Origin: an uncultured Nitrospiraceae bacterium
GTDB taxonomy: Bacteria > Nitrospirota > Thermodesulfovibrionia > UBA6902
Assembly: GCA_964347155.1 (NCBI GenBank)
Contig: CAYFXR010000070.1
Span: forward strand, 7,657 to 71,656
Direction of reading: 5' to 3'
Length of the DNA: 64,000 bases
Each line of letters opens with the position of its first letter. The stretch's first letter is position 1. The notes under the pieces were generated by a model, which saw nothing but the letters and a program-made list of their open reading frames with translations, had not been told where the DNA came from and ran no database searches. Both the position numbers and the translations under genes were made by a program. This document shows positions 3,558 through 53,220 of the stretch, piece by piece.

Positions 3558-4961
3558 TTATCGAATGACATTTTTCTTTAATTGCATTTTTTGTGTAATG
3601 TAGTCATCGATTGACCTTGCAGCACGTTTACCGGCGCCCATTGCGCTTATTACAGTTGCGGCTCCTGTTGAGATATCTCCTCCGGCGAAAATTCCCTTTA
3701 AATTAGTTCTGCCGTTATGGTCAACTTTAATATAACCGTCACCCCATAGTTTAAGTCTCTTAATTGATCTTACAAGTATCGGATTTGATGTTTGCCCGAT
3801 TGCCATAATAACCTGATCAACTCTCAATGTAAATTCCTTCCCTGTACATTCAGGCCTCCTTCTGCCTGACTCATCAGGCTCAGATAATACCATCTTGTCA
3901 CACTTGAGACTCTTTACCCAGCCTTTATCGTCACCGATAATCTCTTTGGGATTCGATAGAAAACGGAATATAATTCCTTCTTCTTTTGCGTTTTCGACTT
4001 CTTCGTGTCTTGAGGGCATTTCTTTTTCAGTTCTCCTGTAAATGATATAAACTCTCTCTGCTCCTAATCTTAAGGCCGTCCTGGCGGAGTCCATAGCGAC
4101 GTTTCCGCCGCCGATAACTGCTGCTTTTTTTGCCTTTTTAACAGGTGTATCAAATACAGGGAATTTATGTGCCTTCATCAGATTGACCCGTGTCAGAAAT
4201 TCCGATGCAAAGTATACATTGTTTAAATTCTCACCGGGTATACCCATATATTTTGGTGAACCGGCACCGACACCGATAAATACCGCTTTAAAGCCTTCCT
4301 CAAAAAGTTCATCAACAGTTTTTGTCCTGCCGATAACGAAATTGAGCAAAATTTTCACACCGAGCTTTTTTACAAAGTCGATCTCTCTTTTTATTATTTT
4401 TTTCGGAAGTCTGAACTCCGGAATGCCGTATGTAAGCACACCTCCAGGCTCATGGAGCGCTTCAAAAACGGTGACCTCATACCCTAATTTTGCAAGATCT
4501 GCAGCTACTGTAAGACCGGCAGGGCCTGAGCCTATAACCGCAACTTTATGACCGTTCGGTGGCTGTATTTCCGGTAATTGTATGTGCTCCAGCGTCGGCT
4601 CATAATCAGCGACAAAACGTTCCAGTGCGCCTATTGAGATAGGTTTTCCTTTTTTGCCGAGCAGGCAATTACCCTGGCACTGATTTTCCTGCGGACACAC
4701 CCTGCCGCAGATAGCAGGAAGCATGTTAAATTCATAAATTGCTTTAAGACCGCCGAGATAATCCTTGTCTCTGACAAACTTTATGAACTTCGGTATGTCT
4801 ATCTCCACTGGACAACCGGCAACGCAGAGAGGTTTTTTACATTGAAGACACCGGTCAGCCTCTTTAAAAGCCTGTCTTTCCGTTAAACCAATAGCAACTT
4901 CTTTAAAGTCTGATTTTCTTTTTTCAGGATTTCTGTATCGCATAAGTAAATCAGGGTTCAA
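3558..4961 (-). CDS. nfnB: GltD-like NADPH-dependent oxidoreductase, large subunit (NfnB/SudA-type, 2x[4Fe-4S] plus FAD/NAD(P) domains)
   Basis: CLQCKKPLCVAGCP and CGRVCPQENQC cysteine clusters; two dinucleotide-binding motifs (VAVIGSGPAGL, AAVIGGGNVAMD); 467 aa. The start overlaps the upstream PyrK-like gene, which is typical operon coupling. Confidence 0.6.
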   Translation of the reverse strand: MNPDLLMRYRNPEKRKSDFKEVAIGLTERQAFKEADRCLQCKKPLCVAGCPVEIDIPKFIKFVRDKDYLGGLKAIYEFNMLPAICGRVCPQENQCQGNCLLGKKGKPISIGALERFVADYEPTLEHIQLPEIQPPNGHKVAVIGSGPAGLTVAADLAKLGYEVTVFEALHEPGGVLTYGIPEFRLPKKIIKREIDFVKKLGVKILLNFVIGRTKTVDELFEEGFKAVFIGVGAGSPKYMGIPGENLNNVYFASEFLTRVNLMKAHKFPVFDTPVKKAKKAAVIGGGNVAMDSARTALRLGAERVYIIYRRTEKEMPSRHEEVENAKEEGIIFRFLSNPKEIIGDDKGWVKSLKCDKMVLSEPDESGRRRPECTGKEFTLRVDQVIMAIGQTSNPILVRSIKRLKLWGDGYIKVDHNGRTNLKGIFAGGDISTGAATVISAMGAGKRAARSIDDYITQKMQLKKNVIR

Positions 4962-22269: not shown

Positions 22270-22314
22270 GGTAATAAGGAATGTATGCGCAGCCTTCAGG
22301 TTGCGTTATATTTA

Positions 22315-22492
22315 ACCCAAATAATGCAGACATTGCTCAATAAATTATTTAACTCGATAAATTTATTATTAAATTGTGCATATGGCTTTAAATAAAAGTA
22401 TTAACACTCGATCAATTAATATTGCGTTTAAGGTATCGAAAAATAATTTCTTTCACAAAGCCTGCATTATTTGAAATCCATTGTTTGGGTTT
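22315..22492 (+). mobile_element. MITE-like repeat, copy A (about 178 bp with 15-bp terminal inverted repeats)
   Basis: ACCCAAATAATGCAGACATTGCTCAA...AAGGTATCGAAAAATAATTTCTTTCACAAAGCCTGCATTATTTGAAAT..GGGTT. About 90% identical to copies at 27891, 28226 and 52909, and inverted at 38082. Confidence 0.7.
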
Positions 22493-22745
22493 AAACAAAT
22501 CTTACCACAAGATTGGGGTGATTTGGAACGCAGGCTATCAACCTGTCGATTCAACGAGGCGAAAAACCTGCAGCTATTATTTTATTGTATTGCAGTTAAG
22601 GGTTGGACGGTTTTTTTAACAGTATGTTAAATATAGTACTGAAGCTGCTCTAAAATTGATTGACATACATAGACACTTTGATATACTGGAGATAGATATT
22701 CGCGATTACGTCGATACTCCAGCATGTTTTAAGAAGGAACAGTTC

Positions 22746-26647: not shown

Positions 26648-27877
26648 ATGATAAAAAAAGTCAAAGTTGAACAATTAAAGCCTGGAATGTACATTCACGA
26701 TCTGAATTGTAGCTGGCTGAAGCATCCTTTTTTTGGTAACAGCGTAAAGATTAATGATGAGAAAATCATTGAAAAAATAAATGATTATGGAGTCAGTGAG
26801 GTTTACATTGACACAGATTTGGGACTGGATGTTGTCGATGCTCCGACGGGAGAAGAAGTCGGGCAGGAGATCCAGGAAGAACTGAAAGAAGAAGAACTGA
26901 AAGAAGTTGATGAAAAAAAACCTAAACTCGGTTACGTTGTTTCAATAGATAAAGAGATTATCAATGCAAGAAGGATAAAACAGGAAACAGTACAAACAAT
27001 ACAGAAAATAATGAGCAATGTAAAATTAGGAAAGCAAATCGAAAGGGGTAGGGTAGAATACCTTGTTGATAACATTATTGATTCGATTTTCCGGAATCAG
27101 GATGCACTTATAGGTCTTGGAAGACTCAGAAAGATTAATGATTATGTATACAATCATTCCATGAGTGTCTGTGTACTCATGATTTCTTTTTGCAGACAAC
27201 TTGGCTTTGATGCCGAGTTAATAAGAGAAATTGGAATTGGTGCTATGTTGCATGACATTGGCACGACAAAAGTACATTCACATATCCTGAACAAAAAAAC
27301 TGCATTATCTGAAGAAGAATATGAGAAGATCAAAAAGCATGTGGAGTATGGACATACCTTGCTTGAGGGAACCGAAGGTGTCAGTAATACAACAATTATC
27401 ACTGCTTACCAGCATCATGAAAGATTAGATGGTTCAGGTTATCCGAATGGCTTAAGAGGGGACGAAATAACGCAATATGGACAGGCTATCGCTATTGTGG
27501 ATGTATATGATGCATTAACAACGAAGAGATGTTACAAGCGGAAAATCCCTCCCACTCAGGCATTACGGATGCTCTATGAAAGGAGCGGGGTTCAATTTAA
27601 CAAAAATCTTGTACAACAATTTATTCGTTGTATTGGTATTTATCCTGTGGGCTCAATGGTACGTCTGGAAAGCGGCTTACTTGGTATTGTTATCAGCCAT
27701 AATGAAGGAAGTTTACTCAAGCCGGTTGTACGTGTTATATACGATACAAAAAAAGAGAGCAATATAGTTCCCTATGACGTCGATCTTTCAAAGACATCCG
27801 GAAAAGGTGGTGCGGATAGGATCATAAATTATGAATCACCGGAGAAATGGGAGATACAACCTGAGGTATATTTATAG
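26648..27877 (+). CDS. HD-GYP domain phosphodiesterase with N-terminal DUF3391-like domain (c-di-GMP hydrolase family)
   Basis: MLHDIGT (HD) ... HHERLDGSGYPNGL (GYP). The N-terminus MIKKVKVEQLKPGMYIHDLNCSWLKHPF is paralogous to the gene at 53419. The start is set at the second Met by that alignment. Confidence 0.75.
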   Translation: MIKKVKVEQLKPGMYIHDLNCSWLKHPFFGNSVKINDEKIIEKINDYGVSEVYIDTDLGLDVVDAPTGEEVGQEIQEELKEEELKEVDEKKPKLGYVVSIDKEIINARRIKQETVQTIQKIMSNVKLGKQIERGRVEYLVDNIIDSIFRNQDALIGLGRLRKINDYVYNHSMSVCVLMISFCRQLGFDAELIREIGIGAMLHDIGTTKVHSHILNKKTALSEEEYEKIKKHVEYGHTLLEGTEGVSNTTIITAYQHHERLDGSGYPNGLRGDEITQYGQAIAIVDVYDALTTKRCYKRKIPPTQALRMLYERSGVQFNKNLVQQFIRCIGIYPVGSMVRLESGLLGIVISHNEGSLLKPVVRVIYDTKKESNIVPYDVDLSKTSGKGGADRIINYESPEKWEIQPEVYL

Positions 27878-27890
27878 TTAAACCACATAA

Positions 27891-28058
27891 TGCAGGCTTT
27901 GCTCAATAAATTATTTAACTCGATATATTTATTATTAAATTATGCATATGGCTTTGAATAAAAGTATGCACATTCGATTAATTAATAATGCGTTTAAGGT
28001 ATCGAAAAATAATTTCTTTCACAAAGCCTGCATTATGTGAAATGAATTTTTTGTGTTA
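27891..28058 (+). mobile_element. MITE-like repeat, copy B
   Basis: AACCACATAATGCAGGCTTTGCTCAATAAATTATTTAACTCGATATATTTATT...CACAAAGCCTGCATTATGTGAAATGAATTTTTTGTGTT. Begins 14 nt after the HD-GYP stop. Confidence 0.7.
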
Positions 28059-28225
28059 ATCGTTGTTGCATTTTTAAAGATTTTGAAGGTGTCTGTGCCA
28101 CTTATTTAAATAGCTAACTGCATTTTTTGGGTTGACTAATTCAGAATCCTCATATTTTTTTCAACTTTTGTTCATATTTCCTTCGTAATTCTCTGCTATT
28201 TTTTTATTCAGTAATTAACATTATT

Positions 28226-28402
28226 AACCCAAATAATGCAGACATTGCTCAAGAAATTATTTAACTCGATATATTTATTATTAAATTGTGCATATGGCGT
28301 TGAATAAAAGTATGCACATTCGATTAATTAATAATGCGTCTAAGGTATTGAAAAATAATTTCTTTCACAACGCCTGCATTATTTGAAATGCATTTTTTGG
28401 GT
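28226..28402 (+). mobile_element. MITE-like repeat, copy C (tandem with copy B, about 170 bp apart)
   Basis: AACCCAAATAATGCAGACATTGCTCAAGAAATTATTTAACTCG...CACAACGCCTGCATTATTTGAAATGCATTTTTTGGGTT. Confidence 0.7.
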
Positions 28403-28423
28403 TAACTGATTCTAGTCTGACTA

Positions 28424-35161: not shown

Positions 35162-36781
35162 GTGCTTAAACTGCTTTTAAAAGATATTGCAATAAGAGAA
35201 AATTTGTCTGTCCAGAGTAATACCTCTTTAAGAAATTCAATTAAGTTAATGAATATTAACAGAAAAGGTGTGGTTGTTGTGCTGGAGGATAAACGACTGG
35301 CAGGAATCTTAACTGAAAGGGATATTATTAAAATATTATATGAGGGCATTAACCTGGATGAAAGTGTAGATAAATATGCCAAGAAAACTTTGGTTTCAAC
35401 CAAAGGGTGCAGGACAGTAGGTTATGCTTTGAATTTGACAATTGATAATAAAATAAGAAGGGTGATAGTCACAGATGATTCAAATAATTTTATCGGTCTT
35501 GTCACACAGCAGGATTTACTTAAATATGTTGAAGAGGATTTTTATCGCCTAAGCATTAAGGTCAAGCATATTTTGAAAGATGCTGGAAGTCTGATCAGTG
35601 TCTCCTCAGATGATCCATTAATTAACGCACTCAAAAAGATGATAGAAAATAAAATTAGTGCTGTTGTAGTAATGGAAGATAGAGCAGTTGTAGGAATCAT
35701 AACAGAGAAAGATATTTTAAAACTGGCTGGTGACAATATTTCCCTTGAAAATATGGTAGACAAATATATGTCCAGTCCTGTTGAAACTGTTTGCAACGAC
35801 TCACCCCTTGTTGAAATTGTAGAAGTAATGAATTACAAGAACATCAGAAGAGTCTTAATCGTTGATCAGGAGGGACGGGAGATTGGTATACTTACCATAA
35901 GAGATGTGATTAAAAATTTAGAGGGAGATTACAGTAAATTTCTTGAAAGGAAGCTTAGAAATGCCAGGGAGATTTTGAACTTGCTCCCTGAGATGCTTAT
36001 AGAGATAGCTGACACCGGAAAAGAGCAGTTAATAGTCTGGGCAAACAGCAAAGTTATTGAAAAATTTGGCAAAGAAATTCTGGATAAATCTGTAGCAGAC
36101 TTTCTCCAAAGGAAAAATTGGAATAAAATCTATGATACCTTGAATAAATTAACCAAAGTAGAAAATATAAGGCTCAAGAAAGACAATAGAATTTATGAAC
36201 TTTCCGGATTTTTATTAAGAATTGATGGAAGAATAGAAAAAAGAAGATACCAGCTTATAATAAGAGATATTACGGAAGAAGTCAGACTATCTACGTTCGA
36301 CCCCCTCACTAATATTTATAACAGAAGGTTCATAAATGGATTCATGATACAAGAAATAGAAAGAAGCAAGCGGTCTTACAAAAAATTTTCTATTGTAATA
36401 TGTGATATAGACGATTTTAAAAAAATCAATGATATACACGGGCACTTATCAGGAGACATTGTACTTAAATCTGTTTCCCAGCTTATAACAAATACTATCA
36501 GGCATCTGGATGTTGTGGGAAGGTATGGAGGAGATGAGTTTATGATAATTTTGCCAGAGGCATCCGGCCAAACAGCTTCTCATATTGTAGATAGAATCAG
36601 ATTTAATATCGGTAGCTTGGAAATACCGGTTCTCAAAAACAAAAAAGTAAAAGTTACTGCCAGTTTCGGTATCGCGACTTTTCCAGAAGATGGGATATCC
36701 CCGGATGACTTACTTATTGCAAGCGATGAAAGGTTATATAAAACTAAAAGCTCCGGGAAAAATAAAGTTTTTTACAATTAA
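35162..36781 (+). CDS. Diguanylate cyclase (GGDEF) with tandem CBS-pair sensory domains
   Basis: Two CBS pairs in the N-terminal half. C-terminal GGDEF domain with RYGGDEFMIILPE active-site motif; 539 aa. Confidence 0.7.
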   Translation: MLKLLLKDIAIRENLSVQSNTSLRNSIKLMNINRKGVVVVLEDKRLAGILTERDIIKILYEGINLDESVDKYAKKTLVSTKGCRTVGYALNLTIDNKIRRVIVTDDSNNFIGLVTQQDLLKYVEEDFYRLSIKVKHILKDAGSLISVSSDDPLINALKKMIENKISAVVVMEDRAVVGIITEKDILKLAGDNISLENMVDKYMSSPVETVCNDSPLVEIVEVMNYKNIRRVLIVDQEGREIGILTIRDVIKNLEGDYSKFLERKLRNAREILNLLPEMLIEIADTGKEQLIVWANSKVIEKFGKEILDKSVADFLQRKNWNKIYDTLNKLTKVENIRLKKDNRIYELSGFLLRIDGRIEKRRYQLIIRDITEEVRLSTFDPLTNIYNRRFINGFMIQEIERSKRSYKKFSIVICDIDDFKKINDIHGHLSGDIVLKSVSQLITNTIRHLDVVGRYGGDEFMIILPEASGQTASHIVDRIRFNIGSLEIPVLKNKKVKVTASFGIATFPEDGISPDDLLIASDERLYKTKSSGKNKVFYN

Positions 36782-36805
36782 CCCACATAATGCATTATCT
36801 GGGTT
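36781..36805. repeat. TIR-only mini-palindrome of the MITE family (ACCCACATAATGCATTATCTGGGTT) at the GGDEF gene 3' end
   Basis: Read directly. Left and right MITE termini abutted. Forms a hairpin immediately after the stop codon. Confidence 0.6.
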
Positions 36806-38081: not shown

Positions 38082-38239
38082 CAACAATGCAGGCTTTGTG
38101 AAAAAATTTATTTTTCGATACCTTAACATAATTTTAATCCATAGAGCGGTATATATGTTTGTGCAAAGACATTTGCATAATTTAATAAAAAAATCATAGA
38201 GTTAAATAGATTTTTGAACAATGTCTGTATTATTTGGGT
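38082..38239 (-). mobile_element. MITE-like repeat, copy D (inverted orientation), immediately upstream of the cytochrome gene
   Basis: The reverse complement reads CAAATAATACAGACATTGTTCAAAAATCTATTTAACTCTATGATTTTT...GGTATCGAAAAATAAATTTTTTCACAAAGCCTGCATTGTTGT. Confidence 0.6.
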
Positions 38240-39881: not shown

Positions 39882-41999
39882 ATGGGTTTTTGGGATGACA
39901 TTAAACATGATTTCAGAGCTGTATTTGAGATGGATCCTGCTGCAAGAAGCAGGCTAGAAGTTATTTTTTCTTATTCAGGATTTCATGCAATCCTGTTTCA
40001 CAGAATCAATCACGTGTTGTGGAAAATGAATATTCCCGTATTGCCCCGTTTTTTCTCCCAGGTTGCAAGATTTATTACCGGCATAGAAATACATCCTGCA
40101 GCAAAGATAGGAAAAGGGTTTTTTATTGATCACGGTATGGGCGTCGTCATAGGAGAGACAACAGAGATAGGCGAGAATTGCCTTCTTTATCAGGGAGTTA
40201 CACTTGGCGGCACCGGAAAGGAAAGGGGCAAGAGGCATCCAACTCTTGGTAATAACGTAGTAGTTGGAGCGGGCACAAAAGTTCTCGGTGCAATAACGAT
40301 CGGGGATAATGTGAAAATAGGAGCAAACTCCGTCTTGCTGAACTCTGTACCGAAGAACTCTATTGTCGTTGGCGTGCCGGGCAGGGTGATTAAAAAGAAG
40401 GTTGTAAAGATGTTAGCCGAAGGACCTGTAGAAATGCTCGATCATGTGCACATACCTGACCCGCTCGAGGAGAAATTCGAGGAAATCAAAACTTATATGA
40501 ATGATCTTGAAAGGAGAATGAGCACATTGGAAGGCAGAGGTGAAACGATTAAGGTTTTTAACACACTCAGCGGGAAAAAAGAGGATTTTGTTCCCCTTAA
40601 TTCAGGCAAGGTGAATATGTATGTATGCGGGATAACGGCTTATGACGTCTGCCATTTGGGCCATGCACGAAGTGCAATTGTATTTGATATTATAAAGCGG
40701 TACCTGAGATACAGAGGCTATGACGTAACGCATGTACGGAACATAACCGATATTGACGACAAAATTATTGCCCGTGCAGCAGAGGAGAAGATTTCTACGG
40801 AAGAGGTAGCAAAAAAATATTCAGAAGAATATTACAGGGATATGGAATTGCTCGGTGTAAGCAGGGCTGACATTGAGCCAAACGCAACGGATCACATTAA
40901 GGAAATGATAGAAAATGTTCAGGGGCTGATTGATAAAGACTATGCCTACAGTGTTGATGGAGATGTTTATTTTGAAGTCAGCAAGTTTCCGAGCTATGGA
41001 AAACTGTCAAAAAAGAACAAAGATGACCTTATGGCCGGGGCAAGGGTCGATGTGGACGAGAGGAAGAAGAGTCCCCTTGATTTTGCTTTATGGAAGGCCT
41101 CTAAGGAAGGTGAGCCTTTCTGGGAAAGCCCGTGGGGAAAAGGCAGACCGGGATGGCATATAGAATGCACGGCAATGTCGTCAAAATACCTTGGGGAAAG
41201 TTTTGATATACACGGTGGTGGAGCTGATCTTATTTTCCCGCACCATGAAAACGAAATAGCACAGAGTGAGGCTTTCACTGGCAAGCCGTTTGTAAGATAC
41301 TGGATGCATAATGGATTTATAACTGTTGATAACGAAAAGATGTCAAAATCCCTGGGAAACTTTTTTACCATCAAAGAAATCCTTGAAAAATTTGAGCCTG
41401 AGGTAGTGCGATATTTTCTCCTGACTACACATTACAGAAGTCCGATAGAGTTTTCAGATGCGCAGTTGAATGAGGCAGAGCTTTCTATCGATAGATACTA
41501 TACAACAGTGATGAGGATCAATGATTTTCTCGAAACAACTGTAACCGCCGAAAAGATTACCTCGTCGGCTGAACTTGAGGATTTACTGTCTTCATTTAGG
41601 GAAAAGTTTCACAATGCAATGAATGACGATTTCAATACGGCTTCAGTATTAGGATTCATTTTTGAGCTTGTCAGGGAAGTGAACCGATTTCTTGATTTAA
41701 ACCCTTCGGGGCAGAAGGCAAAAGACCTCGTTACCCGTACAAAAGAACTTCTTGCTGAAGGGGGAGATGTCCTTAATATATTCAACAAGACACCTGTTGA
41801 ATGGTATAGGTCGTTAATGAAAGTCAAGAAGATAGAACTTGCGGAGGAAATGCTTCATAACAAGATAGCAGAGAGACGGGAAGCACGAAAACAAAAGGAC
41901 TGGGATACTGCAGATAATATAAGAAAAGAGCTTGCAGAAAAAGGAATTATTCTTGAAGACAAGAAAGACGGGACGGCATGGAAGATCAAGGTTGGGTGA
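39882..41999 (+). CDS. cysE-cysS: Serine O-acetyltransferase (CysE) and cysteinyl-tRNA synthetase (CysS) encoded as one continuous 705-aa ORF
   Basis: N-terminal CysE hexapeptide region (GVVIGETTEIGENCLLYQGVTLGGTGK...) and CysE-type tail (LDHVHIPDP...LERRMSTLE). This is followed directly by CysS (IKVFNTLSGKKEDF, HLGHARS HIGH motif, KMSKSLGN) with no stop. An in-frame ATG at 40518 is preceded by GAAAGGAGA. Confidence 0.7.
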   Translation: MGFWDDIKHDFRAVFEMDPAARSRLEVIFSYSGFHAILFHRINHVLWKMNIPVLPRFFSQVARFITGIEIHPAAKIGKGFFIDHGMGVVIGETTEIGENCLLYQGVTLGGTGKERGKRHPTLGNNVVVGAGTKVLGAITIGDNVKIGANSVLLNSVPKNSIVVGVPGRVIKKKVVKMLAEGPVEMLDHVHIPDPLEEKFEEIKTYMNDLERRMSTLEGRGETIKVFNTLSGKKEDFVPLNSGKVNMYVCGITAYDVCHLGHARSAIVFDIIKRYLRYRGYDVTHVRNITDIDDKIIARAAEEKISTEEVAKKYSEEYYRDMELLGVSRADIEPNATDHIKEMIENVQGLIDKDYAYSVDGDVYFEVSKFPSYGKLSKKNKDDLMAGARVDVDERKKSPLDFALWKASKEGEPFWESPWGKGRPGWHIECTAMSSKYLGESFDIHGGGADLIFPHHENEIAQSEAFTGKPFVRYWMHNGFITVDNEKMSKSLGNFFTIKEILEKFEPEVVRYFLLTTHYRSPIEFSDAQLNEAELSIDRYYTTVMRINDFLETTVTAEKITSSAELEDLLSSFREKFHNAMNDDFNTASVLGFIFELVREVNRFLDLNPSGQKAKDLVTRTKELLAEGGDVLNIFNKTPVEWYRSLMKVKKIELAEEMLHNKIAERREARKQKDWDTADNIRKELAEKGIILEDKKDGTAWKIKVG

Positions 42000-42010
42000 T
42001 GAATGTTCTG

Positions 42011-42781
42011 CTAATTTCTATATTTTTTGCAAAAAACCTCTGTGATGTTCCAAAGCTCGTCTGTTAAAGATTCCTTGACCTTGGCCTGTATGAAATCTGG
42101 AATGTTTCCATAGTATGCATCGGCAATTCCACCGGTTATGCAAGCAAGGGTGTCGCTGTCGCCACCGAGAGAAATTGCATTACGGATTGCATCTTCGTAT
42201 GAGGTAGATTCAAGAAAGGCAATGATCGCCTCCGGAACAGTACCCTGACAGGATACGTCGAAGTGGTAGTGAGGGCGTATCTCGTCCAGGCTCTTTTCCA
42301 GTTTGTAACCGAATCTGTGCTGAATTTCTTTTTTGATATGTTCCTTATCCTGTGTAGTGCGGGCAAGGAAAACAGATAGTGCAGTGGCCTGAGCACCTTT
42401 AATTCCTTCAGGATGATTGTGGGTGATTTCCGCAGATTTAGCGGCTTCATCCAGGACTCTTTCGATACTGTCAAATGCAAAGCCGACCGGACTTACGCGC
42501 ATGGCCGAGCCGTTTCCCCAGCTGTTGTAGGGCCGGGGATCTTCAGAAAGCAGCCAGTAAATGAATGAACCGCCATACCCAGCATGAGGATACTTCCGCC
42601 CGATCTTTCTGATTGACGAAAGGTAATCAGAAACATCCAGGATTGATTTTGCAACGGCAACGGTCAGTACAGAGTCATCTGTAAAACGACAGAGTGGATG
42701 GAAGAGGGGAAAATCCTTTGTCTTGATTGGATAACCTTCATAAACAGAGCCGATAATATCTCCTGCAATCGCACCTATCAT
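42011..42781 (-). CDS. ADP-ribosylglycohydrolase family protein (DraG-like)
   Basis: MIGAIAGDIIGSVYEG N-terminus and ...GGDSDTLACITGGIADAYYG C-terminal metal-site motif; 256 aa. Confidence 0.7.
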   Translation of the reverse strand: MIGAIAGDIIGSVYEGYPIKTKDFPLFHPLCRFTDDSVLTVAVAKSILDVSDYLSSIRKIGRKYPHAGYGGSFIYWLLSEDPRPYNSWGNGSAMRVSPVGFAFDSIERVLDEAAKSAEITHNHPEGIKGAQATALSVFLARTTQDKEHIKKEIQHRFGYKLEKSLDEIRPHYHFDVSCQGTVPEAIIAFLESTSYEDAIRNAISLGGDSDTLACITGGIADAYYGNIPDFIQAKVKESLTDELWNITEVFCKKYRN

Positions 42782-42870
42782 GAGTTTTTTAGCACCCTTT
42801 CTGTAGGGTTACCCATTTAAAGGGCGCATGTCAAGCGAAAAAACTCCCATTTCCGTGAAAAGCATTCTGC

Positions 42871-42934
42871 GGGGTCAGGTCTTTCATTGTGACAGTTTTG
42901 TAACAATGAATGTAACAATGAAAGACCTGACCCC
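42871..42934. repeat. Perfect 20-bp inverted repeat (GGGGTCAGGTCTTTCATTGT ... ACAATGAAAGACCTGACCCC) with a 24-nt spacer, followed by a CTGACCCCACACAC direct repeat
   Basis: Read directly. Lies between the HigA-like gene 3' end and the ADP-ribosylglycohydrolase gene 5' end. Confidence 0.7.
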
Positions 42935-42976
42935 ACACACTCTGACCCCACACACTTAATTTTTTTCAACGCTTGG

Positions 42977-43237
42977 TTATGCCGCTGTTTTTTTCTTTAT
43001 GTCCCACCCGGGAAAAACGAGAACTGCAGGATGACACCTGAGAGCTATCGCGATTACCTTCGCCCGCTCAACTCCTAGCTTGACCCGATCGTTTTCGATA
43101 GCTGAAATAGTAGATTGAGGAATTCCTGTAATTTCAGCCAGATCGTTTTGACTCATTTCTTGCAGTTCCCTGATAATCCTTACCGATTCTCCAACTGTTA
43201 CATCTACCGTCTTCTTTGCCTTTTTGAAATTTCTCAT
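42977..43237 (-). CDS. HTH XRE-family antitoxin (HigA-like)
   Basis: LQEMSQNDLAEITGIPQSTISAIENDR helix-turn-helix. The start at the internal Met abuts the upstream toxin gene stop. Confidence 0.65.
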   Translation of the reverse strand: MRNFKKAKKTVDVTVGESVRIIRELQEMSQNDLAEITGIPQSTISAIENDRVKLGVERAKVIAIALRCHPAVLVFPGWDIKKKTAA

Positions 43238-43238
43238 T

Positions 43239-43520
43239 TTATTTCCTCCTATAATCATGAGGAGTAATATTTATAACCTGGACAAATATATCTTTGGCTG
43301 CAATCTTGTAAATAATTCTATATTTTATACCTAACCTTGATGATCTAAATCCTTTCCATTCACCTCGCAAAGCCTCGTCATGGAACCCTTTGATGAATCT
43401 TAAGCCTTCCGGGCCTGATATCCTTACAATGTCTTTCCATTTTTCATAATGTTTTAATATTTCTACGGGCAATCCATTAAGCTGTTTAGTCACACGTCGA
43501 TGCTCATATATTTCCCACAT
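43239..43520 (-). CDS. RelE/ParE-superfamily toxin (HigB-like; toxin-first gene order)
   Basis: 93-aa basic protein upstream of and translationally coupled to the XRE antitoxin. Family assignment is from size, context and composition. Confidence 0.5.
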   Translation of the reverse strand: MWEIYEHRRVTKQLNGLPVEILKHYEKWKDIVRISGPEGLRFIKGFHDEALRGEWKGFRSSRLGIKYRIIYKIAAKDIFVQVINITPHDYRRK

Positions 43521-43534
43521 ACAGTATTGTATAT

Positions 43535-43550
43535 ATACTATTTATAGTAT
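43535..43550. promoter_or_regulatory. Palindromic candidate operator (ATACTATTTATAGTAT) in the toxin-antitoxin promoter region
   Basis: Perfect 7-bp arms about 15 nt upstream of the toxin start codon. Confidence 0.4.
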
Positions 43551-43559
43551 GTCAATTAA

Positions 43560-44077
43560 AGGCTGATGTCAATATTTATTGTAGTGTGTTATCCGGGGGT
43601 ATCCGGGGTCTATAATGATTAACGCGTGGGGTCACCCTTCAATTTACATTTTATAAAATTACTTAAATGTATAATGTAGGTTTGACCCTGATTCTCTGGA
43701 AGCCCCCACTTATCCGATTATGTTTTTTTCATGTGGGGTTCCGCCCCCACACGACGGGTTCATTCTTTTTTCCGCAAAAAAGAACGAACAAAGAAAAAGC
43801 GCCCCTTACATCCCGGAAACAATCAATAGGGTTATTAATACATAAGTGGCACGGCGATGCTGTGTCCTTACTTCTGACTTCTGCACTAGTGCACTTTTGC
43901 TCTATGATATTTTTGTGGGTGAACATTCACTATCCGGCTACGGCCCGATAGTCTCTGTGAAACGCCCCTTGCGGACGTAAAAGTCCCGTCAGGACAACGT
44001 CCCTTTACGGGACCCGCATGAGGGGTGTTGTGGAGAGCGGGGGAGAGAAGCCCCCGCTTATCCGATTGTACGATCTT
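43560..44077. other. GC-rich non-coding island of about 520 bp with 21-bp direct repeats and terminator-like hairpins (candidate small RNA genes or an integrated remnant)
   Basis: GAAGCCCCCACTTATCCGATT+T7 at 43699-43729 and GAAGCCCCCGCTTATCCGATT at 44047-44067 preceded by the hairpin GCGGGGG-AGAGAAG-CCCCCGC. Internal hairpins are TGTGGGG..CCCCACA and GGACG..CGTCC/GTCCC..GGGAC. No credible ORF. Confidence 0.4.
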
Positions 44078-44554
44078 TTATGTCTTTAGTTGTTTTCTAA
44101 TATAAGTATGATCGCAATAGCTATCACCCGTTCCGATTTGATGTTTGCGTTCAAAGTCCCAGTTATTAATGTTATCTTTCGCAACTTCCCAATCGCCACT
44201 GCAAACATAAGGGCCGATGTCTATATATCCAAGCAGTATCACAAGTTCAGCAAAGGGGCAGTTTGCTACATGCAGTTTAAGAATGTTGCTGCTATTTTCA
44301 GCAATTGAAATATCGTAAAAAGGCCGTAACCATTTGGCCCTCCTGGTTATTATATCTTTCAACTTGTCGAAGTCATCAGCACTATCTACATAAGGAACGA
44401 GAATTCTCACGAAAGTTTTTGCGATCCTGACGATAATTGGGCGCATTATTTCTATAGCCTTTTCTCTTGATGAAAAAAGGGACAGGATTTTGATACACAG
44501 TATAACCGGGCCTGCTACAACAATGGCTACCAATTGTCTTAATATTTTTTTCAC
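44078..44554 (-). CDS. Hypothetical protein with N-terminal TM helix
   Basis: 158-aa ORF (MKKILRQLVAIVVAGPVILCIKIL...). No motif recognised. Confidence 0.3.
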   Translation of the reverse strand: MKKILRQLVAIVVAGPVILCIKILSLFSSREKAIEIMRPIIVRIAKTFVRILVPYVDSADDFDKLKDIITRRAKWLRPFYDISIAENSSNILKLHVANCPFAELVILLGYIDIGPYVCSGDWEVAKDNINNWDFERKHQIGTGDSYCDHTYIRKQLKT

Positions 44555-44783
44555 ACAATTACCTCAGCAGATTATCAGCTGCCTTAAATTATGTCGTACA
44601 ACGCCTGAGTCAGTGATGCAGGCCTGAATAATATAAAGTGACATTTTATTTTGAAGCATAACGTGGAGCTGAGTGACGAGTACTACTGTATTGCAGTAGG
44701 TTGCTTGAAAATAATTTGACAACCTAAAATTAATCCGAGCTAAAAAAGCGCCCTGTGGTACTCGTTCGATCTCCAACGCCTTG

Positions 44784-45329
44784 TTATCTTTTCAATATTT
44801 TTTCATCTGCCCCCGCAGCTTTAAGTAACTCAACAACTTCTTCATGCCCCTCATGCTGAGCTACAATCAAAGCCATTGCTAACCGTTTTGAATCTTTATT
44901 TGCTCCATTATCTAATAATAGCTAAACTACTTCTGTGCTGCCATTAAGGGATGCGTATATTAGCGCTGTTAATCCTTCGCTTGTTCTGGCATGTACATCT
45001 GCTCCATGATTTAATAAATTATTAGTTATCTTAGCGTTACTACACGTAGCAGCTCTCATTAATGGTGACATTCCTTCATTATCCTGAGCATTTACATTTG
45101 CCCCTCTATCTAATAAAACTTGCACAGCTCGAGTTTGTCGGTGTCTGCATGATGCTAATATTAAGGGTGTCCTGCCTCGTGCATCTCTGGCATTTACGTC
45201 TACTCCTTCATCTAATAGATTCTCTATAGAACCATAATATCCGTGTGTTGCATTCCAGTATATATCATTCACTTGAGCGCATGCTATTGTCAGTATAAAT
45301 GCTAACAATAAAATACTTGAGAATCTCAT
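44784..45329 (-). pseudogene. Ankyrin-repeat protein (secreted) interrupted by an in-frame TAG (plus-strand cta at 44922-44924)
   Basis: Track ORF 44922..45425 ends ...LNGSTEVV*. The same frame continues LLLDNGANKDSKRLAMALIVAQHEGHEEVVELLKAAGADEKILKR to a TAA at 44784-44786, completing an ankyrin repeat. The stop sits where K/E/Q is expected (EVV-x-LLL). Confidence 0.6.
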
Positions 45330-45684
45330 GAAGCCTCCTTTTGTATTTCTTAAAGATAACATATTAATAGAGTAAACTCGTTTTTCTTGGATTTTCAATA
45401 TACCTGTCAAAAATACCAGTTTCATAAATGATTGAAATTAAACTAAACTTATTTTTAATGGCATTCTTGTTTGCTCTGTAATAACATATATACCAAATAT
45501 CGTTTTTGCTGACTTTTTATCATTTTCAGGGGACATGCAATGAAGAAAGAAGTATTGCCCGAATTCCAGAATTATCTGCGTTCAAATAGCCTTGTCCACG
45601 AAAAGTATATAAAATTTTATGTCCATTGGGCAAGGAAATTCTTATAGCTATTAGCTATAAGCTGTAGGCTATAAGCTCAAATTT

Positions 45685-46044
45685 ATGAAAGACTTTAAGG
45701 ATTTGAAAGTATGGGAGCGCGGTCATAAGTTAACTTTAAAAATATATAAAATCACATCAGGTTTTCCTCGCGAAGAATTGTATGGATTAACTAGCCAAAT
45801 GCGAAGATCTTGTGCTTCAATTCCAACAAATATAGCTGAAGGGTGTGGAAGGAGCAGAGATACAGAACTTGCACGTTTTCTGGAAATTTCAATATGTTCA
45901 TCAAGCGAGCTGGAGTATCTACTTTTATTAAGTACAGACCTGAATTTTATAACTAAATCTGAAAGTGAAATTTTGAACGGTGAGCTAGTCGAAATAAAGA
46001 GGATGTTAATATCTTTTTATCAAAAGCTTAAAGCTAAAAGCTAA
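45685..46044 (+). CDS. Four-helix-bundle protein (23S rRNA intervening-sequence protein family, TIGR02436-like)
   Basis: KVWERGHKLTLKIYKIT..FPREELYGLTSQMRRSCASIPTNIAEG is the family signature region as I recall it; 119 aa. Confidence 0.65.
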   Translation: MKDFKDLKVWERGHKLTLKIYKITSGFPREELYGLTSQMRRSCASIPTNIAEGCGRSRDTELARFLEISICSSSELEYLLLLSTDLNFITKSESEILNGELVEIKRMLISFYQKLKAKS

Positions 46045-46518
46045 ATGCTTATAGCTTAGCAACCATGATCTATCTTCACTTCATAAGAGAATTGTCTGGT
46101 GCCCCTGAAAGTCCTATTGATAGTCTGAATAAAGACGAATGAAATAAGCGGAAAGTTTATTTATTATAAAATCTCCCCTCGCCCCTCTTTGCCAAAGAGG
46201 GGGATTATATATAAATCAACCTCAAACTATGGAGGTTGAACCTCCATAGTTGTTACTCTGACAGTTCCAGATTCGGATACACCCTGGAAAAAGACACCAG
46301 AATCTTGACTGAATTCTCAGGATAGGTCATCGAAAAATCTTTAATCCTCCCTTGCCCCCCTTTTATAAAGGGGAGGAATTAAAGTATAGATTTCGGATCA
46401 AGTCCGGAATGACAATTGTGGTACAGCATTGGTTCAATCGAGGAAAATTAAACCAGCAGAAGGGAATGAGATACATTTTTAATTTTGCATTTTGTAATTT
46501 AAATTTGCAATCCCTGTT

Positions 46519-46545
46519 AACCCAAAAAATGCATTATTTGGGTTA
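46519..46545. repeat. TIR-only mini-palindrome of the MITE family (AACCCAAAAAATGCATTATTTGGGTT) at the 3' end of the ABC ATPase gene
   Basis: Read directly. A near-perfect 26-nt palindrome 13 nt downstream of the minus-strand stop at 46558. Confidence 0.6.
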
Positions 46546-46557
46546 AACTCAAGTGTT

Positions 46558-50649: not shown

Positions 50650-50740
50650 AAATTGGTATATCAATTAATATTGCCCTTAAGGTACCGACAAATAATTTCT
50701 TTCACAAAGCCTGCATTGTTTGAGGTGCATTTTTTGGGTT
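50650..50740 (+). repeat. Partial MITE-like copy (right half only)
   Basis: ...CTTAAGGTACCGACAAATAATTTCTTTCACAAAGCCTGCATTGTTTGAGGTGCATTTTTTGGGTT. Lies upstream of the GAF-HD-GYP gene. Confidence 0.55.
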
Positions 50741-52782: not shown

Positions 52783-52908
52783 CAACTTTTTAAAACCCTC
52801 TTTCCCCCACGTTTAATCCAAACAATGCATTTTTTTAAACTTGTCAAAATATCAGGCATTGTCCCAAGTTTGTATGATGGAAATAACGATGTTTAAGTTT
52901 TTTACTTT

Positions 52909-53085
52909 ACCCAAATAATGCAGACATTGCTCAAGAAATTATTTAACTCGATAAAATTATTATTAAATTATGCATATATCTTGGAACAAAAATATTCACC
53001 TTAGATTGGTTGGAATTGCGTCTAAGGTATCGAAAAATAATTTCTTTCACAAGGCCTGCATTATTTGAAATGCATTTTTTGGGTT
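52909..53085 (+). mobile_element. MITE-like repeat, copy E, upstream of the second DUF3391-HD-GYP gene
   Basis: ACCCAAATAATGCAGACATTGCTCAAGAAATTATTTAACTCGATAAAATTATT...CACAAGGCCTGCATTATTTGAAATGCATTTTTTGGGTT. Flanked by about 28-bp direct repeats (..AATGCATTTTTTTAAACTTGTCAAAATAT at 52823-52852 and 53352-53379). Confidence 0.7.
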
Positions 53086-53220
53086 TATAAGAAAACGCTA
53101 TCATTACCCGACCCCCTAATCAAGTCAGAGGGTATGCTTGATCGAACAATCCAGAAATAGGAATTGGATTCGGGCACAGATACCTTCAAAATCTTTAAAA
53201 ATGCAACATGATTATTGGAT

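Follow-up and report, generated by a model that had tools for sequence, protein, structure and literature searches.

Group II introns of the IIC-attC type insert in the bottom strand of attC sites, opposite to the direction of cassette transcription, and their insertion separates a gene from its attC (PMC3001079, PMC4424553), while the expression of neighbouring cassettes is also affected (PMC3001079). Group II introns start with a 5' end of the GUGYG type; domain V is a helix of ~34 nt that has the catalytic triad close to its base and two bulged nucleotides in the 3' strand, and domain VI is a hairpin in which an adenosine is bulged 7-8 nt ahead of the 3' splice site. The catalytic triad of domain V is defined as AGC or CGC, and in bacteria the majority of intron copies have been truncated or inactivated, often amid other mobile DNA (PMC4424553). 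In the class 1 integron of plasmid pIMP4_000369 (NZ_CP031121.1; intI1-blaIMP-4-qacG2-aac(6')-Ib4-catB3-[intron]-qacEdelta1-sul1), the intron is antisense to the cassettes, has the termini GTGTACGCCC... and ...GGCTACCCGATT, as in the family described below, and ends where its last bases overlap the catB3 stop codon, with the catB3 attC hairpin located directly upstream of its 5' end.

We analysed a 64-kb stretch of DNA from an uncultured bacterium, referred to throughout as the window, and found that plus-strand positions 43913-44067 very probably represent the last 155 nt, at the 3' end, of a group II intron of class C (IIC-attC type), and are thus mobile-element debris. The fragment lies within an interval (43521-44077) that sits between two minus-strand features, a toxin-antitoxin operon and an ATC_hydrolase-family gene. 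The features of this region and the evidence for them are as follows.

43520-42977, minus strand: operon of a RelE/ParE-like toxin and an HTH antitoxin
43526-43572, minus strand: two overlapping promoter-like sites (ATTGACAT repeated), before the toxin-antitoxin operon
43619-43698, plus strand: candidate attC-like target hairpin (bottom strand) of a lost intron copy, from fold and layout
43699-43719, plus strand: putative solo relic of a second intron copy, its last 21 nt, from sequence match
43720-43912, no strand assigned: spacer of 193 nt between the two relics, with two hairpins (43732-43751 and 43758-43789)
43913-43951, plus strand: reverse transcriptase/maturase relic, the last 12 codons (LWVNIHYPATAR) and the TAG stop, from tblastn
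43961-44029, plus strand: domain V, its terminal loop expanded by an insertion, from RNA fold, covariance model R1 and covariation
43977-44013, plus strand: insertion of 37 nt in the domain V terminal loop, GGAC on either side, from blastn, cmsearch and alignment
44031-44067, plus strand: domain VI hairpin GGAGAGCGGGGG / AGAGAAG / CCCCCGCTT[A]TCC, then the GATT tail, from fold, covariation and R1
44078-44554, minus strand: PF14196 ATC_hydrolase-family gene, the antisense gene that forms the 3' exon context, with its stop 10 nt beyond the intron 3' end

Composition and repeats of the interval

A preliminary description had reported a non-coding, GC-rich island of 520 bp with two direct 21-mers, each followed by a T-run, and had read it as sRNA genes or as an attL/attR-like pair. 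The 21-mers are present on the plus strand (GAAGCCCCCACTTATCCGATT at 43699-43719 and GAAGCCCCCGCTTATCCGATT at 44047-44067), share the same orientation at a spacing of 348 bp, and are the only two sites in 64 kb even when three mismatches are allowed (0 of 100 shuffled sequences with matches; chance expectation none). We likewise recovered the hairpins GCGGGGG-AGAGAAG-CCCCCGC (44034-44054) and TGTGGGG-TTCCGC-CCCCACA (43732-43751), the pairings GGACG/CGTCC and GTCCC/GGGAC (43974-44013), and a direct repeat, TATCCGGGG, found twice within 43590-43608.

Other parts of that description were overstated. The GC excess is real (0.463 in 43560-44077 compared to 0.388 in the whole window) but local, since 43913-44067 (0.581) carries nearly all of it and 43521-43698 has a GC content of 0.331. 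A T-run follows the first 21-mer (ATGTTTTTTT) but not the second, which continues with GTACGATCTTTTATG, and neither site was called in a terminator scan. The interval is non-coding as far as its two ORFs are concerned: the 94-aa ORF on the plus strand has no Pfam match and none among 1.84 billion representative proteins, and the 65-aa ORF on the minus strand has no homologue among the 5.8 billion clusters searched. The 94-aa ORF makes one exception, as its last 12 codons are what is left of a protein gene. Rfam models gave no match at curated thresholds across the whole window, and only chance-level matches in a permissive scan of 43300-44300. The promoter-like sites at 43526-43572 are separate from the intron relics.

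Homology and structure of the intron fragment

The identity of the fragment was assessed with protein, profile and covariance searches. Using tblastn with nine full-length intron proteins, we found 100% identity across their last 12 residues (LWVNIHYPATAR, 43913-43948) and no other match in 43400-44100. A profile of 37 full introns had a single nhmmer match in the window (43913-44077, E = 7e-31), which covers positions 1827-1954 of the 1955 in the profile. With blastn, 43914-43976 and 44010-44067 aligned to the adjacent positions 4233-4295 and 4292-4349 in ~75 loci, such that the window carries a 37-nt insertion relative to those loci. The covariance model R1, built from 47 relatives with the window and its paralogues left out, matched 43949-44070 on the plus strand (84.9 bits, E = 7e-24) with 26 of 26 pairs standard, and in the cmsearch alignment a single model position in the domain V loop is occupied by 38 nt of the window.

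The predicted RNA fold of 43949-44067 (-57.7 kcal/mol, z = -5.15) contains a domain V with a 2-nt bulge and a domain VI with a bulged A. Domain V at 43961-44029 has kept the CGC triad, the G-U wobble and the 2-nt AU bulge, and all of its 13 pairs are standard in the R1 alignment. In domain VI, 13 pairs are conserved, seven of which show compensatory changes in relatives, and the branch-point A is bulged at 44060, 7 nt before the end of the element at 44067. Across 50 sequences, 99.2% of the cells in the two domains were paired and 12 pairs had double changes, a level reached by none of 500 shuffles (slid controls, 45-51% paired). The 3' splice site is directly after 44067, since homology to all copies ends at ...CCGATT and the flanks beyond are unrelated.

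These results account for the most conspicuous elements of the interval: the 21-mer combines the 3' strand of domain VI with the tail of the intron, the strong hairpin that had been noted in front of the second 21-mer is domain VI, and the nested GGACG/GTCCC hairpins are the insertion in domain V. This insertion, which houses the nested GGACG/CGTCC and GTCCC/GGGAC pairings, is common to the window and the paralogous loci L007 and L008.

The proposal of one or two plus-strand sRNA genes sharing a 3' terminator module of hairpin and U-tract drew on the same structures, as domain VI forms a strong hairpin, the predicted fold of the region is good (z = -5.15) and TTTTTTT follows the first 21-mer. 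Those hairpins, however, are homologous, with covariation, to domains V and VI, which lie 3' of a maturase ORF in ~77 copies. The supposed terminators are thus domain VI with the 3' tail, and the remaining GC-rich hairpins are domain V and the insertion in its loop. Moreover, the first 21-mer is without a 5' hairpin arm, neither site was called terminator-like, no Rfam sRNA family matched, and there is no promoter-like site on the plus strand between 43540 and 44047. We consider sRNA genes highly improbable here. The checks that had been suggested alongside them, namely Infernal, relatives and covariation, resolved the identity as group II intron tails.

Most of the intron is missing from the window. 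Ribozyme domains I-IV are not represented, as the full-intron profile matched only positions 1827-1954 and group-II-D1D4 models had no match at E ≤ 10, and the 5' end motif GTGTACG is absent from 43520-43912. Only the 12 terminal codons of the maturase ORF are present in the window, while relatives encode proteins of 446-508 aa. With neither ribozyme core nor protein, the relics cannot splice or move and are inert. The Rfam model RF00029 (Intron_gpII) had no match on the window sequence at its gathering score or at E ≤ 10 because of the 37-nt insertion in domain V; in the intron family the domain V loop is non-GNRA (GACC), which together with the loop insertion depresses the RF00029 score.

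Copies in metagenomes and full-length relatives

The 21-mer had no match in contigs representing one genome per species and was found in six metagenome contigs, which have ...GGTGTTGTGGAGAGCGGGGGAGAGAAGCCCCCGCTTATCCGATT in common, with identity ending right after GATT and full divergence thereafter. Copies differed in their 5' extent, from at least 155 nt (window and L007) and ~190 nt (L006) to 96 nt (L008) and 29 nt (L003). A protein-database search with a spurious ORF crossing the element in L006 led to a contig of 540 bp, L009, in which the same 3' end is preceded by an ORF ending in ...YWKQWRLARTKVRNLLKLG...MWVNIHYPATAR and a stop. This ORF is a longer maturase C-terminus, with a weak match to the GIIM maturase domain (PF08388). 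Using the L009 protein fragment we fetched 79 related loci, mainly from Desulfobacterota, with some from Nitrospirota, Acidobacteriota and other metagenome-assembled genomes (MAGs).

Full-length copies of ~1.9 kb (L013 and L010) matched RF02001, RF01998 and RF00029 above threshold, with full-length relatives scoring 42-45 bits on RF00029. Among the insertion-free paralogues, L009 scored 44.2 bits and L005 38.3 bits, just below the threshold of 40. The family has the termini GTGTACGCCCGGCA... at the 5' end and ...GGCTACCCGATT at the 3' end.

Two cases deserve separate mention. L009 has a weak group-II-D1D4-3 match at positions 54-148 (30 bits, threshold 32), directly after which just 89 C-terminal codons of the intron protein remain, and is an internally deleted derivative. 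An apparent 49-nt insertion with NN in domain VI (L002:3100-3150, equal to L004:1150-1200) was rejected as a scaffold join of two intron copies, one of which has a GTGGGGG/CCCCCAC stem variant matching the first 21-mer of the window.

The distribution of the 21-mer also bears on the proposed attL/attR-like direct repeats, which would bound one degraded integrated element at 43699-44067. Near-identical 21-mers in direct orientation 348 bp apart, with accessory genes around them, are what such an element would leave. The 21-mer is nevertheless the element's own 3' end and not a duplicated target; other loci have one 21-mer, always at the same end and with unrelated sequence beyond it; and there is no integrase nearby, nor does the interior (43720-43912) match anything mobile. 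That proposal was correct in recognizing a degraded mobile element in an accessory-gene neighbourhood. Its mechanism did not hold, as the repeats are the same 3' end in two intron copies, and we regard site-specific integration as very improbable.

A further possibility, that the copies are REP/BIME palindromes whose movement depends on a RAYT (Y1) transposase, or that they are a right end or guide-RNA scaffold of an IS200/IS605 element, is close to negligible in our assessment. It is suggested by the L006 copy, which adjoins a RAYT-like gene (NF047646, 72.9 bits; PF01797), by an element end 10 nt past the hairpin, and by copies that are multiple and extragenic. Against it, the adjacency occurs in one locus, where the RAYT unit, which has 26-nt inverted repeats of its own, abuts the broken 5' side of the fragment, no RAYT or TnpB gene is present in the window, and the homology to domains V and VI and to the maturase is decisive. 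The REP/RAYT and IS200/IS605 candidates were dropped with the maturase C-terminus of L009 and its Rfam match to domains V-VI. The L006 gene itself (634-1735) encodes a RAYT-like Y1 transposase with a probable frameshift, scores below the NF047646 cutoff (72.9 bits, cutoff 80), and has inverted repeats of 26 nt (ATCACAGATAAAGATACGACCCCACT) on each side, adjoining the 5' break of the intron fragment.

Insertions in the terminal loop of domain V

Of all parts of a group II intron, domain V is usually the one most conserved. We found insertions of 24-37 nt at the same position of its terminal loop in three intron lineages: the first comprises the window (43977-44013), L007 and L008 (37 nt), the second L046:1640-1670 from a Chitinivibrionales MAG and L011:~4300-4330 from a Nitrospirae MAG, which come from two different phyla and have one common insertion (..GAAGTGCCCTTGGGGTAGACCC), and the third L055:~4290-4320. 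Within the genome studied here, the 37-nt variant is present at no fewer than three different loci, which is the pattern to expect had introns with the insertion once been mobile. All insertion-bearing copies, including L046, L055 and L011, have broken protein frames, and it is doubtful that IIC-attC introns accept structured expansions of 25-37 nt in the domain V loop and still move.

A second relic and its candidate target

The first 21-mer (43699-43719) corresponds to the domain VI 3' strand and tail in an 'A' variant (CCCCCAC), without the 5' hairpin arm, and L003 contains a similar relic of 29 nt with the same A variant. Judging from this match, 43699-43719 appears to be the remnant of another copy in the same orientation, 21 nt being too short for independent statistical proof.

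Directly upstream, a GATTAAC box (43619-43625) precedes a palindrome at 43629-43688 that is imperfect and bulged (DNA fold -9.6 kcal/mol, z = -2.2). By analogy with the layout of the 5' exons in relatives and of the catB3 attC (L089), 43619-43698 is a plausible attC-like target of the lost copy.

A comparable arrangement was observed behind the antitoxin gene, read on the minus strand (42868-42976): the antitoxin stop codon lies within GCATAAC, an RYYYAAC-like box, and 3' of it GTGTGTGGGGTCAG occurs twice, followed by a perfect 20-bp palindrome (GGGGTCAGGTCTTTCATTGT/ACAATGAAAGACCTGACCCC). The GGGGTCA...TGACCCC base there resembles that of the palindrome at 43629-43688, and the two may be related hairpin sites. 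Elsewhere in the interval, TTATCCGGGGGTATCCGGGG at 43589-43610 resembles the intron tail TTATCCGATT, and TATCCG occurs five times on the plus strand in 557 nt compared to 19 times in the whole window; such sites could be more decayed intron tails, or chance.

The spacer between the relics (43720-43912) had no match to the intron profile, the nine intron proteins, the protein databases or, by blastn, the 89 loci. Its last ~45 nt are common to the window and L007, although the two adjoin different genes, which is not predicted by simple independent truncation from the 5' side. The common upstream junction suggests duplication of an already broken unit and not two independent truncations. The spacer may be a cassette without an ORF that has decayed, or it may have been duplicated along with the broken intron end.

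Antisense placement and the IIC-attC lineage

Termini, antisense position and protein similarity all indicate that the relic probably belongs with the IIC-attC introns of integrons. The protein of the full-length relative L013, which stands in for the window in this comparison as the window itself keeps only 12 residues, showed 55-58% identity, across 98% of its length, to intron proteins of class 1 integrons on enterobacterial resistance plasmids. In 36 of 79 copies, an antisense ORF (60 codons or longer) terminates no more than 25 nt from the intron 3' end, compared to 7.7% of random positions (p ~1e-19). In the window, the fragment is on the plus strand and the ATC_hydrolase gene on the minus strand, with its stop 10 nt past 44067; the corresponding distances are 11 nt in L006 and 18 nt in L007, and in L008 the stop overlaps the intron end. 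At the other end of full-length relatives, 40 of 53 distinct 5' flanks had a bulged palindrome preceded by an RYYYAAC-like box (YAAC), the box lying 47-84 nt upstream, and several of these flanks are nearly identical to the catB3 attC. At the window locus the large fragment has lost its 5' junction, and the layout would fit an attC context. A tblastn search with IntI1 detected no integron integrase across the 64-kb window (best E = 0.62).

We also considered that the fragment may have been domesticated, with the minus-strand counterparts of the domain V and VI hairpins acting as a 3' stabiliser or terminator of the ATC_hydrolase mRNA, or as a cis element of the toxin-antitoxin operon. The fragment starts 10 nt past the stop of the gene, the few positions at which near-identical contigs differ fall in loops or stay compatible with G-U pairing on the minus strand, and IIC-attC introns are known to affect neighbouring cassette expression (PMC3001079), all of which would suit such a role. 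On the minus strand, however, the hairpins are not followed by a U-tract, and the same fragment is found behind unrelated genes elsewhere, so that its position follows from the target choice of the intron. The polymorphism argument comprises ~5 sites in assemblies of one population; strain polymorphisms as a sign of a minus-strand RNA were discarded, the sites being too few and the argument superseded. Domestication is very unlikely, and an inert intron end is the preferred reading. At most, the hairpins of the relic could possibly structure, passively, the 3' end of the antisense gene's transcript.

The surrounding 4.5 kb (42011-46557) consist of small accessory genes, mostly on one strand. 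Among them, the ankyrin-repeat ORF at 44790-45425 (minus strand) stops at an in-frame TAG (44922-44924), with an ankyrin-like frame running ~45 codons further; it is probably a pseudogene, and the gene is called in pieces in L001 and as 167 aa in L002. A gene at 45685-46044 (plus strand) encodes a PF05635 '23S rRNA intervening sequence protein', or bAvd-like four-helix-bundle protein, and is bracketed by low-complexity AGCTATAAGC / AGCTTTTAGC repeats (45640-45690 and 46040-46075). Outside the stretch, an ORF of 705 aa at 39882-41999 resembles, by eye, a fusion of serine acetyltransferase (CysE-like hexapeptide repeats) and cysteinyl-tRNA synthetase.

The window additionally contains a family of ~180-nt repeats with palindromic ends (TTAACCCAAATAATGCAGGC ... 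GCCTGCATTATTTG..TTTGGGTT) at 22305-22493, 27871-28059, 28224-28412, 50660-50740 and 52899-53087, and short forms at 36771-36794, 38086-38113 and 46510-46545, the last of which directly follows the ABC-transporter gene that bounds the accessory stretch. These repeats might be MITE-, REP- or attC-like candidates.

Origin and comparison with known introns

We infer that each copy would have arrived by retrohoming: directly behind a minus-strand gene, an intron RNA-protein particle would reverse-splice into a bulged hairpin site, on its bottom strand, before the RNA was copied into DNA. The 5' ~1.75 kb, comprising domains I-IV and the protein gene, would have been lost later through incomplete reverse transcription or deletion. 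What was observed comprises the homology, structure and covariation, the end of the element at 44067, several copies whose downstream flanks are unrelated, and the antisense position.

The feature is ordinary, consisting of decayed 3' ends of a known retroelement class. Its recognition removes a false lead, as a structured, GC-rich, repeat-bearing island that resembled sRNA genes is a broken retroelement, and it illustrates how the standard Rfam model can miss a group II intron remnant that carries a loop insertion. The 4.5-kb accessory stretch appears to have been struck at least twice by attC-targeting introns, which hints that this uncultured bacterium may have, or may once have had, integron-type cassettes among the small genes of the stretch. 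For specialists in introns, the recurrence of insertions in the domain V loop is a minor curiosity.

REP/BIME elements and IS200/IS605 right ends are likewise multi-copy, extragenic and hairpin-rich, and one copy here is RAYT-adjacent, but no homology test for them was positive and the window element is homologous to the intron instead. In RF00029 searches, insertion-free paralogues and full-length relatives match or nearly match, whereas the window copy does not. Compared with the IIC-attC introns of integrons, the window keeps only the last 155 nt (21 nt for the putative second copy), has a 37-nt insertion in the loop of domain V, and has a domain VI tail of TTATCCGATT instead of CTACCCGATT; unlike the integron setting of those introns, the 64-kb window is without an integron integrase and its attC is a candidate only. 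As in other 5'-truncated bacterial intron copies, the 3' end is common and the 5' extent varies. With IIC-attC introns (S.ma.I2 lineage; the catB3 intron of pIMP4_000369) the window shares the 3' terminus ...CT(A/T)(C/T)CCGATT, and its full-length relatives also have the 5' terminus GTGTACGCCC. The architecture of domains V and VI is the same, including the CGC triad, and in both the insertion is antisense, at or no more than ~10 nt from the stop of the neighbouring gene.
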